From Carcharhinus amblyrhynchos (lineage: Eukaryota), in contig OZ336873.1 of NCBI GenBank assembly GCA_965287045.1, positions 55,986,001 through 56,050,000 on the forward strand: a stretch of DNA of 64,000 bases, written 5' to 3'. Under the pieces are notes generated by a model. The model saw only the letters and a list, made by a program, of their open reading frames with translations, was not told where the DNA came from and ran no database searches. This document shows, one piece after another, positions 2,601 to 59,529 of this stretch (positions within the stretch are counted from its first letter, which is position 1; each line of letters opens with the position of its first letter). A program made the position numbers and the translations under genes.

Positions 2601-2749
2601 AAATATCCACTATGCATCGAGGTCAGTGGAAGACAATCTAGTGCTCTGTAAAAAGAATTCGTTAAAACCAGCTTTTCCTCCAGTGATAAAAAAATCAATT
2701 TGCATATATGGCGCTGAGCTGAAATCCTCCCGTTTACAATCACACTTAC

Positions 2750-3055
2750 CGTACACAGTAAGCTGGGTGCCAGTTCCATTTTCATTAGATTTTTCTAGAT
2801 ATTTCACTTTACAATAATACACTCCGGAATCTGCAAAAGTCACATTCAGCAATTCAAGCGAACTACTTCCCTTGTCCGCAACAAATCGCTTTCTGCTGTC
2901 TGGTTCGAGAAAGGATTGCTCTCCATGTCTCCACCAACGAAGATCGGGCACATCTTGAAATAAGGGAAATGTGCAGAGCATGGAAGCATTCGCGCCTCTG
3001 CTCACATTCAAGTATTCAGGGATCTGAACCACTTTGTTCCAAGTTACTCTGGCGG
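2750..3055 (-). CDS. Gene A exon 2: Ig V-set domain with J-like G strand (SIRP-like/VJ-type IgSF receptor)
   Basis: Acceptor ttcctgacAG|CC and donor TACG|GTAAG; 306 nt, phase 1-1. Encodes AARVTWNKVVQIPEYLNVSRGANASMLCTFP..LRWW..DSGVYYC..NGTGTQLTVY with canonical Cys, Trp and DxGxYxC. The following C1 exon would lie beyond position 1. Confidence 0.93.
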
Positions 3056-31240: not shown

Positions 31241-32806
31241 TTTGCAACTCTCCTATTTTAACGCTAGTTGGATGGGGTTAGATTGGAATTTTACCGTCCC
31301 ACTGGCCAGGGGAACCAGAAACTGAGTATTGCAGGGGCGAACCATTGGTGTCTGGCAAATTCGGCAACCCAAAAAGAATGCATAAATAGCTGCTTACACC
31401 TCTTCCTGTTGCCACTTGCTTCCCCATAACAAACCTGCTAAACTCGTAGCAGGGAATTGATGGTTGTAGCCTTCTGGAATTTCAAAATCAATATTTTCCA
31501 CCATTTATTGTGCAATTCTCACAAATGCATGAAAGTTTTGTTCTTGAACTCTATAGAAAGACCCTCAGTCTATTGGTATTAGTAATCTTACCTTTCTGCA
31601 GCCTAAGCCTTATTGGACTCAACTAACTGGCACATATTACAACGCCACAGTGAAAACTGCACAGCCCTGAATCACAAGAATATGGACATCAGCCACAATA
31701 CCTGTGCTATCTCATTTTTCCTGTTGGATCTCCAGGATTTGTCTCCAAGCTATGCTCCCTTGGAGTGGCAAGGAATCAATTTCTTCCATTTTACAATGGG
31801 ACTGCCTGTACTGTTTTCTCCCGTTCATTCCATCCCATCTAGTACAGATTTGATACAAACATGTGGGCCCGTATTTCATTTTCCAAGTTAATTTTGAGTA
31901 CCACACTACATTAAATGTAATTGAAAATAATTTATTGGATCAGCCTCTGGTCTATATTTCTGTAGCACTCGGGGCAAATGGGAACAAAGTTATGGGGAAA
32001 AACAGGATTATGCTATTGAGTTGGATGATCAGCCACGATCGTAATGAACGGCGGAGCAGACTCGAAGGACCAAACGGCTTCCTTCTTCTATGTTTCTGTG
32101 TGTCCTAGTGATCTTTCCTCCCTAACAGTAGAACCTGTGTCCCTGGGCAGATTAGCTTGTCTGTCTCTCTAATGGAAATGGGCTACTTTAAAGAATAATT
32201 TTGGAAGCAGCTTCAGTGCGTTTTATGAAGTTTCGGGTGCAGACGCTTTCCTCATCCCTCTCTATCCTGTGACCGAAAAGACCGTGATTCAGATAGTATT
32301 TACAGCGAATGACTGCCGTCGCCTCAGGCAGTCACTCGGTGACAATGGACTTTCAAAGGCAACTGTTAAATTTGTTACACAATGGAAGTTAATAATCATT
32401 TTTTAAAAGTTGAACCGATTGACATTTTCTTGAAGTTCAAGCGACTCCTCGTGAAATTGTATGACACAAACCATGCACGCTGCATTTTAAGAACGATCAC
32501 AAGTTGACATTGCAAAATGTTGATGCCAATTAGTTGCTAATATCACAAGAAGATCATCCTGCACATTTGAAATCCGGAAGATTTTCAACTTGTCGACAAC
32601 CTCAAACTGGTTTTGGAAATCTTGCCTTGGTCACGGAAAGCACCCGATATTGCATTGGTTCTATAACAGTCCAGCGAGCAATTCTGCCAGTTGTGATGTT
32701 CCGGATAGTTAGTTAGCCTGGCTACAATCAATGTAAACAGTAGTGGATGCATTTTAAGGTTTATAATCGAATAGTCTGATCCTGCACTCATAAATATCTT
32801 ACATTC

Positions 32807-32944
32807 TCAACTCCTTTCTTTCTTTGTCACGTTCACTTCAGCATATAATGCGCGTTTGTTTTGTTTAAGTTTTGATGGGTCCTTGGAATCAGCAAGCTGC
32901 AAGGCGGCATAAGCTAGCTTGTTATCTCCACCTCTTTGTTTAGT
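32807..32944 (-). CDS. Gene B exon 8: terminal cytoplasmic exon with ITIM
   Basis: Acceptor tactttcacAG|ACT, phase 0; TKQRGGDNKLAYAALQLADSKDPSKLKQNKRALYAEVNVTKKERS* contains ITIM LAYAAL and ITIM-like ALYAEV. Not in the supplied ORF track. Confidence 0.85.
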   Translation of the reverse strand, partial: TKQRGGDNKLAYAALQLADSKDPSKLKQNKRALYAEVNVTKKERS

Positions 32945-33531
32945 CTGTGAAAGTAATATTTAATATCACCGTAAATCCATTGTCCAATCATTATTGAGAC
33001 AGTTGACACTTTAACGAAAGACTTATGGAATTTCCTTTCATTAGTTCCAATTTCAGATTGTAATCGGATTTTGGACAGGCTTCCTTTCCCTTCTCTGCAG
33101 CCCTCCCCCAAATCTTGTTGAAATTCCATTTGAACTTCCATCTAAAATGAGTTCGTTTGTTAATATAGCTCATTAAAGAAAGCAGATTAATTATTGACCA
33201 AAATAGAAAAAGTATCTATGCTGCTCTGTTAAAGCTGTTGGGAAAGCTGATATTACACAACATTGATTTAAGGCCCAATTGTCTGAACAGCGACAGCCGC
33301 AGTGCCCTGCTTACCCCACGGGGGAAAGCTCTAGCTCACATTTTTCAATCGCCTTACCACCATTCCCACTAATCTCCCGATCTCTGGGACATGAGGCAAA
33401 AATGACGAACTTGTTTGCAAACAGCCGACAGAGCACAGTTGGTAGATTAAGCAAGAACCTTCCCATTTCCTGCATCTCAATGTCGTAACCCATAATATTG
33501 ATGCCATTACAGTAAAAGACTAAAGATGTAC

Positions 33532-33636
33532 CTGGGAATATACGATATTCTCCTCCCTCTGTCTGGGGTTCGCCTTCTTCCTGGTGTCAATCTTGACTGT
33601 GGCATAGGCCAGGCTGTTGTCGGTGCCGTGTTCTGT
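33532..33636 (-). CDS. Gene B exon 7: cytoplasmic ITIM exon
   Basis: Acceptor tattttacAG|ACA, donor CAG|GTACAT; 105 nt; TEHGTDNSLAYATVKIDTRKKANPRQREENIVYSQ with ITIM LAYATV. Confidence 0.85.
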
Positions 33637-33942
33637 CTGTAAAATAGATATTTTCCACATGTAGTTGATGAATTTCTTGTTTGGTAGTTTGGGACAAGCA
33701 TTATTCCAGGCAGACCCGAAAGAGAAACGTGGATAATATTGACTCTGTTTTTGTGTAAAACCGACCACGAGCCCGCAGCCCGATTTGCATCTGTTCAGAT
33801 TGCTATTTCCAACCAAGTCAGTAGGAGGAATGCCAATTATTAAGGACTTGTTGTAATCTGTCCTATAAAGACAAAACTTTCCCCAACTCGCTCAGATTCT
33901 GAACAATTAATCAATTTCACTCTGTCATGTATGGTCATATCG

Positions 33943-34227
33943 TAGAATCCATACAGGGCACAGGGAGACCATTCGGCCGATAGAGCCTGCACCGACCACA
34001 ATCACACCCAGGTTCTATCCCCTTAAATCCACCTAACTCCCGCTAATCCCTTGGCATTAAGGGGTAATTCACTTAACCTGCACATCTCTGGAGTGTAACC
34101 AGAGTACCCGGAGGAAACCCACGCCAACATGGGGAGAACATGAATGTCCAAACTCCACATAGACAGTTACTCGAGGCCGTAATTGAACCCGGGTACCTGG
34201 CGCTGTGAGGCAGCGGTGCTAACCACC
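33943..34227 (-). mobile_element. V-SINE (HE1-like) in gene B intron 6
   Basis: Minus strand ggtggttagcaccgctgcctcacagcgccaggtacccgggttcaatt head, V-domain and CR1-type tail. Confidence 0.88.
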
Positions 34228-34264
34228 TAGTTTGAGTATTTTTCGCCTCATCCCTCAGTCGTAC

Positions 34265-34375
34265 CTGAGAATAGATGGTGTGCTCTTTCTTGTGTCTCGG
34301 TTTGGAGGGTCCTTTTTCTTCTCGCAGGCTCAGAGTAGCGTAGGCGGCAATGTTCTCATCTGGCCTTTGTCTAGC
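34265..34375 (-). CDS. Gene B exon 6: cytoplasmic tyrosine-motif exon
   Basis: Acceptor ttgttattacAG|GCT, donor CAG|GTACGA; 111 nt; ARQRPDENIAAYATLSLREEKGPSKPRHKKEHTIYSQ with ITIM-like AAYATL. Confidence 0.85.
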
Positions 34376-38355: not shown

Positions 38356-38460
38356 CAGCTGATGGCTTTAATTTGAGTCTCCTCAAAATAATTATCAACA
38401 GTAAAATAGCTAATGCGCCGCCTGCACATCCGAAAATGAGCGGAAGTTTGCGACCATCAT
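38356..38460 (-). CDS. Gene B exon 4: transmembrane segment
   Basis: Acceptor tttgttcctgtAG|AT, donor CTG|GTAAGT; DDGRKLPLIFGCAGGALAILLLIIILRRLKLKPSA, an uncharged TM followed by basic stop-transfer residues. Confidence 0.92.
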
Positions 38461-40261: not shown

Positions 40262-40558
40262 CTTGAATGGCGATATAGCTGACACTGGCGGGCACCTTCA
40301 GGGAAATATGAGATGCCAGACATGTATAAACTATTCGGCTCGGGACAGGCTGTTCCTCTTCCAAAGAACTGGTGACCTCAAAAAGACCATCCACTGTCTT
40401 GTTTCTCACAGTTTCTATTCCGGCCAGAGTTTCCACACCATCTCTTAGCCAGGAGATTTTTAAATCCTCCGGGTAAAAGGCAGCCGTTTTACACTCCAAT
40501 CTCAGAGAAGTCGCGGAAATCCCTTCGACCTGAATGAGTTTCAGGGGGGTTGGGGGAA
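40262..40558 (-). CDS. Gene B exon 3: Ig C1-set domain
   Basis: Acceptor ttctctattaaAG|TT, donor CAAG|GTAAG; 297 nt, phase 1-1; LRLECKTAAFYPEDLKISWLRDG..NKTVDGLFEVTSSL..VYTCLASHISL shows the C1 signatures CxxxxFYP, W and YxCxxxH. Confidence 0.95.
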
Positions 40559-43596: not shown

Positions 43597-43651
43597 CTAG
43601 CCAAACCAGGCTCAGAAAAGCTATGTACTGAAATGTAACTCTCATCGACAT
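43597..43651 (-). CDS. Gene B exon 1: signal peptide
   Basis: ATG at 43651, MSMRVTFQYIAFLSLVWL plus 1 nt, donor TAG|GTAACC; phase 1. Confidence 0.87.
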
Positions 43652-57002: not shown

Positions 57003-58842
57003 GACATAAGAAATAGGAGCAGGAGTAGGCCATCTAGCCCTTCGAGCCTGCCCCGCCATTCAATAAGATCATGGCTGATCTGTCGTGGCTCAGTTCCACA
57101 TTCCCGCTCTCTCCCCATAACCCTTAATCCCCTCTCTTATCAAAAACCCATCAACCCGCGTCTTAAAAATATTTAGCGAGGTAGCCTCCACCACTTCAAC
57201 GGGCAGAGAATTCCAGAGATTCACCACCCTTTCAGTGAAGAAGTTCCTCCTCAACTCCGTTCTAAACCGCCCCCCCCCCTTTATCTTGAGGCTGTGCCCC
57301 CTCGTCCTACTATCATTTCTGAGGGGGAAGGGTCTCTCCACCTCTATCCTATCCATCCCATTCATCATCTTATATGTCTTAATGAGATCTCCCCTCATTC
57401 TTCTAAACTCCAACGAGTACAAGCCTAATTTATTCAGCCTCTCCTCATAGCTCAACCCCCTCAACTCTGGCATCAGCCTAGTAAACCTCCCCTGCACTCC
57501 CTCCAAGGCCAAAATATCCTTGCGCAAGTACGGTGCCCAAAACTGCACACAGTACTCCAGCTGCGGCCTCACCAATGCCCTATACAGCCGCAGCAAGACC
57601 TCCCTACTTTTATATTCAATCCCCCTCGCTATGAAGACCAGCATCTCATTCGCCTTCTTGACCACCTGCTGCACCTGCAAGCCGGGTTTTTGCGACTCAT
57701 GCACAAGGACCCCGAGGTCCATCTGCACCGTCGCCTGCTGCAGTTTTTCACCACGTAAGTAATAATCCTTCCTACCATTATTCCTACCAAAGTGGACTAC
57801 CTCACACTTGCCAACATTAAATTCCATTTGCCATTTCCTGGCCCATTCGCCCAGCCTATCTAGATCCTTCTGCAGACTCTCTACACCCTCCGCACAATTT
57901 GCCGTTCCACCAATCTTGGTGTCATCAGCAAATTTCGACACCCTACACTCGGTTCCCTCCTCCAGATCATCTATATAAATGGTAAATAGCTGAGGCCCCA
58001 GCACCGACCCCTGGGGCACTCCACTAGTCACCATCCGCCAATCCGAATAGCACCCGTTGACCCCCACTCTCTGCCTCCTATTTGACAACCAATCCTCTAT
58101 CCACGCTAACACCCTACCCCCAACTCCATGTCCCCTGACCTTCTGCAATAACCTCTTGTGAGGTACCTTGTCAAACACCTTCTGAAAATCCAGAAAGACC
58201 ACATCCACTGGCTCTCCTCCATCCACCGCCCTTGACACATCCTCATAGAACTCCAGTAAATTTGTCAGACACAACTTCCCTTTAACGAAACCGTGCTGCG
58301 TCTGCTCTATCAAGCAATTCCCTTCAAGATGCCTCGCTATTTCCTCCTTGATGACGGATTCTGACATTTTACCTACAACAGACGTTAAACTAACCGGCCT
58401 ATAATTCCCTGCCTTTTGCCTGGCACCCTTCTTAAACAACGGCGTAACATTAGCCGTTTTCCAATCTTCCGGCACTTCCCCGGAATCCAGCGACGTCTGG
58501 AAAATAACCACCAAGGCATCTACTATCACCTCCGCCATTTCTTTCAGAACCCTCGGATGCGTTCCATCCGGTCCTGGCGACTTGTCCACAATCAGTCCCT
58601 CCAGTCTGTCGAGCACCGCCTCTCTAGTAACAGTAATGTCATTAAGACCCTCCAGTCCTACCACCTTTCCATCTCTAACACCTGGCAAATTATTCACGTC
58701 CTCCTCCGTGAAGACCGAAACAAAAAAGTTATTCAAGACCTCAGCCATATCCCCATCCCCTACCACTAAGTCCTCCTTCTCATCCTCTAAGGGACCAACG
58801 TTCACCCTAGCCAGCCTCTTCCTTTTTATATATTTATAAAAA
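57003..58842 (-). mobile_element. Young 5'-truncated CR1 LINE
   Basis: Uninterrupted RT frame, 3' UTR and ttcttatg tail; lacks ORF1 and the endonuclease domain. Confidence 0.96.
57090..58842 (-). CDS. CR1 ORF2 reverse transcriptase (partial, open frame)
   Basis: KSPGPDG, NYRPVSLTS, FLDFQKVFDKVPH, GVPQGSVLGP, FADDTK catalytic motif. The first ~28 codons of the listed 611-aa ORF derive from adjacent non-CR1 repeat. Confidence 0.9.
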
Positions 58843-59529
58843 AGGTCGAGGATGGGAAAGCTGGAACTCCACATTAGAGACTGGAATGCCGGGGGAGGGG
58901 GGGAAGAACGTCTGCAGATGAACATCCCTACCCCCCAGGCCTCACCCCTCCCACAGGTCCTGGCCCCTCAGGCCCCTTGGCACTGCCTGGAACCTGTTGG
59001 GTTCTGTCAGTGTGCCATTCTGACACTGTGGCATGCCTAGGGGGCAGTGCCAGTGCGCCAGGCTAACTGTGCAAGGCTGGCTGTATCCAAGTGGCAGCCC
59101 CCCAGTGGGATATCAATGGTCTTTGGTCCCACAGGTGATCCTCGCAAGACCGCAGAGGTAAATGAGCCAGACGATTCCGTGCTGGGTTCATTCAAAATAT
59201 TTAAATTCTATGTTGCATTAAATTTAGATATTACAATCAGCCTCCTGTCATTTTCAGGCACAAGGCTGATCTCGTCCAATATCCATAACAGGTAAGATTG
59301 TGAGGTGCGAGGAACTGGACAAGACCCTGATATCCCAGCTCTCTTTGATCTGAGCACCTTGCCTCATTCATTGGCTGGTGAGGTGCAATAGTAAGATTAT
59401 GGCCTGAATGTTTCCTATATGTTCCATTTCACATTACATAAAATCACATATGGTCTACAGCTCAAAAAGTGGACTATTTGGCCCAAGTGGTCTCTACTGA
59501 CTTTAATCTGCATTTAGATTGGGAGAGTC

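Follow-up and report, generated by a model that had tools for sequence, protein, structure and literature searches.

The 64,000-nucleotide stretch of Carcharhinus amblyrhynchos DNA analyzed here (the window) carries on its minus strand an eight-exon gene for a SIRP-like receptor of VJ-C1-TM organization, with exon phases that are all consistent and a spliced product of 386 amino acids. Two exons of its cytoplasmic tail end inside tyrosine motifs. The most probable explanation, to which we assign a probability of about 0.55, is that the gene encodes an inhibitory receptor that is spliced by default, in which the valine that read-through would add at these boundaries is forced by the GT of the donors and the tail would be varied mainly by exon skipping.

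A receptor gene with a three-unit tail

The comparison set comprises 22 annotated proteins, cited below by P numbers, from four shark species (horn shark, two catsharks and smooth-hound); 17 of them contain 25 junctions of the kind considered here. The exons of the window gene are:

43597..43651, minus strand: exon 1, signal peptide, assigned by its match to the N-termini of P0009 and P0010
43101..43406, minus strand: exon 2, V-set Ig domain with a J-like end, GSGSQLTV
40262..40558, minus strand: exon 3, C1-set Ig domain
38356..38460, minus strand: exon 4, uncharged transmembrane segment
37892..37935, minus strand: exon 5, 44-nt cytoplasmic exon whose phase-0 donor likewise reads Val (an internal control)
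34265..34375, minus strand: exon 6, tail unit 1, AAYATL ... TIYSQ|
33532..33636, minus strand: exon 7, tail unit 2, LAYATV ... IVYSQ|
32807..32944, minus strand: exon 8, terminal unit, LAYAAL ... ALYAEV, then stop
31931..31936, minus strand: candidate poly(A) signal, the first AATAAA past the stop codon

Pfam detects V-set (E 1.5e-9) and C1-set domains in the protein, and its V-C1 portion matches the non-rearranging VJ-C1 proteins UrIg2 (E 6e-14) and B7H6 (E 3e-10) in the PDB, a likeness confined to the Ig domains. There is one C1 exon, as in P0009 and P0010. Exons 6, 7 and 8 align as homologous copies of one two-tyrosine unit, with Tyr spacings of 23, 22 and 22, which bears out an earlier description of the tail exons, made from the sequence alone, as duplicated units. 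The six tyrosines of the spliced tail lie in AAYATL, TIYSQT, LAYATV, IVYSQT, LAYAAL and ALYAEV. By the strict ITIM definition, (S/I/V/L)xYxx(I/V/L), LAYATV and LAYAAL fit and IVYSQT, AAYATL and ALYAEV do not; the two strict ITIMs are present whether the tail is spliced or read through.

This organization resembles that of SIRP-alpha (SHPS-1) in its VJ-type V and C1-set domains, its uncharged transmembrane segment and its tail of tyrosine pairs. The names that automatic pipelines give to the shark relatives are SHPS-1-like or B7H6-like, with several horn-shark proteins assigned to the SIRP-alpha (SHPS-1) type, and the top atlas clusters for the catshark relative P0009 are SIRP-alpha, with scores of 0.97 and 0.96. 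A further likeness is that neighbouring genes share near-identical ectodomains but are without tail units. Mammalian SIRP-alpha has two C1-set domains after V, whereas the window gene has one, and the three tyrosine pairs of the window gene occupy one exon each, with the second motif cut before +3. The Tyr spacing of 22-23 compares with 24 in the SIRP-alpha ITIM1+2 peptide given in PMC3958483; the second motif of that peptide is complete (TEYASI), whereas it is incomplete in spliced pairs 1 and 2 of the window gene. Judged by this resemblance in domains and spacing, the window receptor likely works like SIRP-alpha, albeit with a single C1 domain.

Three duplicated tyrosine-pair exons build the tail, and an old phase-0 intron cuts each internal one before the +3 position of its second tyrosine. 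The intact ITIMs would likely recruit SHP-1/2, their putative partners, and so inhibit; SHP-2 is predicted to bind the spliced T-x-Y-x-Q-T weakly, and SAP/EAT-2 may bind it nonetheless. Variation of the tail would likely come mainly from skipping of whole exon units, at isoform levels that are presumed. Retention of intron 7 would cost the terminal unit. The tail would then have two units, the second of them ending in a complete motif, and so would carry fewer motifs and no new kind of signal.

Two donors inside tyrosine motifs

The features that bear on the exon 6 and exon 7 boundaries are:

34259..34267, minus strand: donor of intron 6, CAG|GTACGA; exon 6 ends TAT TCT CAG|GTACGA
33520..33534, minus strand: donor of intron 7, CAG|GTACAT, with the read-through V-H-L-stop; exon 7 ends TAT TCC CAG|GTACAT and the stop occupies 33522-33520
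34254..34258, minus strand: CTGAG at +7..+11 of intron 6, kept in distant paralogs; it appears to resemble a GTGAG donor 6 nt downstream minus its first G
34073..34264, minus strand: intron 6 read-through frame, 63 codons and a stop (the frame of L002, an intact sister gene, has 5 codons)
33939..34226, no strand assigned: dispersed repeat in intron 6, with many 72-77% matches on other contigs
32959..32964, minus strand: ATTAAA, the sole poly(A)-like hexamer of introns 6-7, with its first base 20 nt upstream of the exon 8 acceptor

Both exons end at YSQ|GTA, as verified in the gene model. Translation of the spliced and unspliced sequences gives TIYSQT and IVYSQT in the first case and TIYSQV and IVYSQV in the second, with IVYSQV running into HL and a stop at 33520, and exon 8 carries YAEV at the matching position; on each of these points the sequence-only reading was correct. 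The valine is nevertheless uninformative, because GT at any phase-0 boundary encodes Val. The exon 5 donor does so too, and the catshark model P0002 ends in a Val-type read-through at exon 5. If default splicing holds, the creation of YxxV by read-through is automatic at phase-0 donors and should carry no evidential weight.

Among the 25 junctions in the 17 annotated proteins, which are related models and not independent transcripts and come from sets that under-record retained introns, 21 pass straight to Thr, four carry Val-Gly and none ends in read-through. The Tyr-bearing junctions read Q|T in 19 of 19 cases. Whole tail units are skipped in models P0005 and P0018, and the TM exon is skipped in P0004 and P0008. 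The spliced form, with TIYSQT and IVYSQT, is likely the normal product of the window gene.

Donor strength was approximated by duplex energy with the U1 5' end, a rough stand-in by which the exon 6 and 7 donors score -7.1 kcal/mol each against -9.5 to -11.2 for the V, C1, TM and exon 5 donors. The V, C1 and TM donors are GTAAG, and the statement that both tail donors are weaker than these three thus stands in terms of energy. It does not extend to the whole gene, however: the leader donor (-6.4) and the median decoy GT (-2.1, n=109) are weaker still, and each tail donor matches consensus at seven of nine positions, a count shared by the V and exon 5 donors. The energies of homologous donors in the paralogs range from -6.7 to -13.7 kcal/mol; thus, the weakness is real in the window gene but is no family trait.

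Read-through from exon 6 is not short in this copy, since its 63 codons extend into the dispersed repeat; six of the eight sister copies, which are one base longer here in the alignment, stop five codons in. Under the exon-junction rule of nonsense-mediated decay (NMD), exon 6 read-through with intron 7 spliced would be a target; of the two introns, intron 7 alone, being the last, could be retained in a stable transcript. The window gene has no in-frame GT before the intron 7 stop or within the first 37 codons of intron 6, so a complete YSQV could arise there only by intron retention. Neither AATAAA nor ATTAAA occurs in the 628-nt intron 6, and the ATTAAA of intron 7 probably belongs to the acceptor region, because several paralog introns have ATTAAA at that place; a transcript that keeps the last intron would in any case require no intronic signal.

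These observations bear on the proposal, made from the sequence alone, that reading through the exon 6 and exon 7 boundaries of the window gene toggles the receptor between phosphatase and SAP/EAT-2 signalling. The read-through TIYSQV does have the hydrophobic -1 residue that SAP requires (PMC12151841), T cells of the bamboo shark express an sh2d1a-like gene (PMC11372145), and, the leader aside, no donor of the gene is weaker than these two. However, none of the 25 annotated junctions (19 of them with a Tyr) reads through, intron 6 is without a poly(A) hexamer, the window gene has no second donor in frame, and strict ITIMs remain when the tail is spliced. Exon 6 read-through would moreover require that both introns be retained, or that intronic cleavage occur without a signal, and it enters the repeat. 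The motifs themselves also argue against such a switch. The spliced TIYSQT departs from the ITSM consensus, TxYxxV/I, which read-through alone would give, and in that sense splicing does erase an ITSM as had been claimed; yet the spliced motif already matches, by sequence, the SAP preference TIYxxV/I/L/T stated in a review (PMC12084948). We therefore consider this switch very improbable.

In the accessible text of PMC12151841, the SH2 domains of SHP-2 prefer only I/V/L/F at +3, with Thr excluded. Since Thr at +3 fits the SAP preference but not those of SHP-2, the likelier effect of a switch at this position would be to adjust SHP-2 binding, not to enable SAP. PD-1, in which an ITIM and a T-x-Y motif act jointly on SHP-2 (PMC12151841), offers a likeness for such an arrangement. 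The SLAM family offers another, in that the read-through TIYSQV fits the older SAP-site consensus TIYxxV/I (PMC2212903, PMC2213098), but there SAP and phosphatases compete for one motif with no involvement of splicing, and the window ectodomain is V-C1 and not V-C2. The KIR genes are similar in that exon skipping, alternative 5' sites and intron retention alter the presence of inhibitory motifs (PMC6288254); they differ in that frame changes retain or remove the tail as a whole, and the accessible text of that source describes no boundary inside a motif. Splice control of inhibitory tails is thus already known, by whole motifs kept or dropped, and a boundary that chooses a single SH2 specificity residue would, if true, be a finer control.

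The boundary across paralogous lineages

The same boundary was found in seven lineages of this genome (A, to which the window gene belongs, B, D, E, F, G and H), scattered over a tree of 20 V+C1 sequences that covers own-genome paralogs only and in which the V rows of lineage E carry a mis-called V end. The exon ends are TIYSQ|, TVYSQ|, TVYAE|, TVYVL|, TDYAQ|, TAYAQ| and the Tyr-less TPCIQ|. Because a boundary three codons past the Tyr is inherited across the family, the exon 6 and exon 7 cases represent one old event and not two. The boundary survives loss of the Tyr, as in TPCIQ|GTAAGA of L020 and APHIQ|T of P0017. Internal units of lineage D end YAE|GTA AAT CTC or YAE|GTA ATT CTC, near the terminal YAEVNV, which is compatible with the origin proposed in the sequence-only reading, namely that the donor arose where a duplicated unit had its Val codon. 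After splicing, the +3 residue varies among T, A and I across lineages; it is Ala in lineage E and L045, outside any SH2 consensus, with T-V-Y retained there.

In one lineage the corresponding junction is annotated in two forms, which counts against default splicing as the whole story. A single horn-shark gene has isoforms X1 and X2 (XP_067906078.1 and XP_067906079.1) that differ solely by Val-Gly at this junction, which points to a second donor 6 nt downstream, and Val-Gly is present in four of the five horn-shark models of lineage F. The own-genome counterpart, L050/L061, keeps the Tyr in TDYAQ|GTAGGT|GTGCAA, in frame with the terminal exon, and use of the +6 donor would convert TDYAQT to TDYAQV. 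Such cases raise a family-wide alternative, which we regard as doubtful but worth weighing, in which completion of the motif is regulated: the default splice would leave a weak site, the +3 Val and with it a tandem SHP-2 site would be restored through a +6 donor in lineage F or, in lineages A, B, D and E, by keeping the last intron, and donor strength, tuned per gene, would act as a dial on inhibition. The second donor of L050, however, pairs poorly with U1 (-3.7 vs -13.7 for the first), and because His replaces Tyr in all five horn-shark F models, the Val-Gly choice persists there without the motif.

Conservation just inside the intron bears on the same alternative. Positions +7..+11 read CTGAG, CAGAG, CTCAG, TTGAG, GTGCA, CTGAG and CCGAG in the seven lineages, with a pairwise identity of 0.61 (20 pairs) vs 0.27 and 0.26 further into the intron. 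The same measure is lower at the C1, V and TM donors (0.43, 0.31 and 0.20, with the V-donor control excluding lineage E, whose V end is mis-called) and at the exon 5 donors (16 of 50 by hand count). A shuffle over any 5-nt window on six lineages, applied post hoc and ignoring descent, gave p = 1.5e-4. This conservation of xTGAG (0.61 vs 0.27 identity) is left unexplained by default splicing. The element looks like a GTGAG donor minus its G, and its conservation counts in favour of the regulated alternative; against this, it is absent after exon 7, it is retained also in the lineage without the Tyr, and in the window gene +7 is C in place of G.

The element could instead be a relic of a GTGAG donor. 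This belongs to a further reading, in our judgment improbable, in which the second tyrosines of internal units are leftovers: the donor would have taken the Val codon or slid 6 nt upstream, so that only the first Tyr of each unit and the terminal unit would signal. Consistent with this, lineage H, the horn-shark F genes, two of five D copies (by a stop) and P0006, which ends at TV, all lack the Tyr, and the spliced +3 residue is not constant. Yet T-x-Y is retained in six of the seven own-genome lineages, and in lineage E and P0011/P0012 it has outlasted the first Tyr of its own unit. A neutral xTGAG relic should also have decayed, because the intron past +12 is at background identity between lineages.

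Variation of the donors themselves fits tuning in one lineage. In seven intact B genes (L016, with a broken exon 6 end, being excluded), donor positions +3..+6 vary at four of four sites vs 22 of 145 downstream sites (Fisher p = 8e-4), a comparison that, like the +7..+11 test, was chosen after the data were seen, uses few related sequences and leaves descent and gene conversion outside its model. The V and C1 donors of these genes are invariant (7/7), as are the TM donors (6/6 called); the exon 5 row was unused, three B genes being called 3 nt early (GAG|GTG|GTAAGA). None of the four positions varies in the decayed A copies (n=7), and all nine A copies pooled show no excess (1/4, p = 0.66). 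At +4, both donors have C in both intact A genes and G in the decayed copies (7/7 for exon 6 and 6/6 analyzed for exon 7, where the count left out L007 and L006 is mis-registered). Separately, exon 5 of the B genes L011, L013, L014 and L016 ends GAG GTG GTAAGA, with two GT 3 nt apart that form a possible tandem donor.

For retention, the regulated alternative draws on the short last introns of lineages D and E (141 and 108 nt), on an AATAAA at +126 to +129 in four of seven B introns, and on L045. The 141-nt last intron of L045 has no in-frame stop, such that retention would yield TVYAEV and keep the terminal unit; its sisters L043 and L044 have a stop. In L047-L049 the 108-nt last intron follows TVYVL| and has AATAAA at +13, and the first Tyr of the unit is Cys with the second kept. 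At L079:4838-5300 a unit ends TAYAQ|GTGCGT, and the next exon is an Ile-first, frameshifted and decayed terminal unit.

Two further signs were considered and rejected. Intron lengths divisible by three (141, 108, 189, 936 and 1032) were discounted, since the A introns (628, 587, 613 and 586) and four of seven B introns are not divisible. Coding selection on the read-through peptide VRLR, found in three lineages with synonymous differences only, was set aside: codon 2 is shaped by the G at donor +5, codon 4 alternates between Arg and Ser with its AG conserved, and the terminal units are variable at +5.

The surrounding receptor genes

VJ-C1 genes are known in elasmobranchs (PMC10751288), and to these the present locus contributes a large cluster, SIRP-like and modular in its tails, from a cartilaginous fish, which we did not find described. 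The literature searches, in which most hits were judged from their listings and PMC10751288, PMC12227049 and PMC11599192 from passages, brought up no paper on this cluster, its tail units or a donor inside an ITIM or ITSM; supplements of shark genome papers, outside the search, may list the genes.

The V exon of the window gene has 57 matches on its own contig. Nine copies of the A tail lie within 0.5 Mb, two of them in whole genes (the window gene and L002). The other seven (L003-L009) are A-type tail cassettes downstream of B genes, five of them with a TM exon; they were not counted as functional because none comes with its own V or C1 and every one carries damage (a stop, a frameshift, a lost Tyr or a lost donor). 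Five of L003-L009 begin exon 7 with Ile, and splicing would there complete TIYSQI. Interleaved with these are eight B genes with a two-unit tail, seven of which have an intact exon 6 end. The V exon of an adjoining B gene lies in the window at 2748-3050 (minus strand), with its C1, TM and tail just beyond the window.

At 56.40-56.61 Mb of G000:C4 (plus strand), six genes (L024-L029) closely resemble the A and B receptors in their C1 domain and in their V domain, the latter by up to 99%. Their TM exon differs, starting SRHVL and ending IIVD/NH, and tail units are absent in the 10 kb examined; by these features they are possible short-tailed partners in a paired-receptor cluster. A second cluster of the same family, with about 25 V-C1 genes, lies 8 Mb off at 64.03-65.11 Mb of G000:C4, and some of its genes have an extra C-terminal VIY motif. 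Elsewhere in the window, a 625-codon open frame at 57093-58967 (minus strand) is LINE reverse transcriptase-like by inspection, and many decayed copies of it are found at other window positions.
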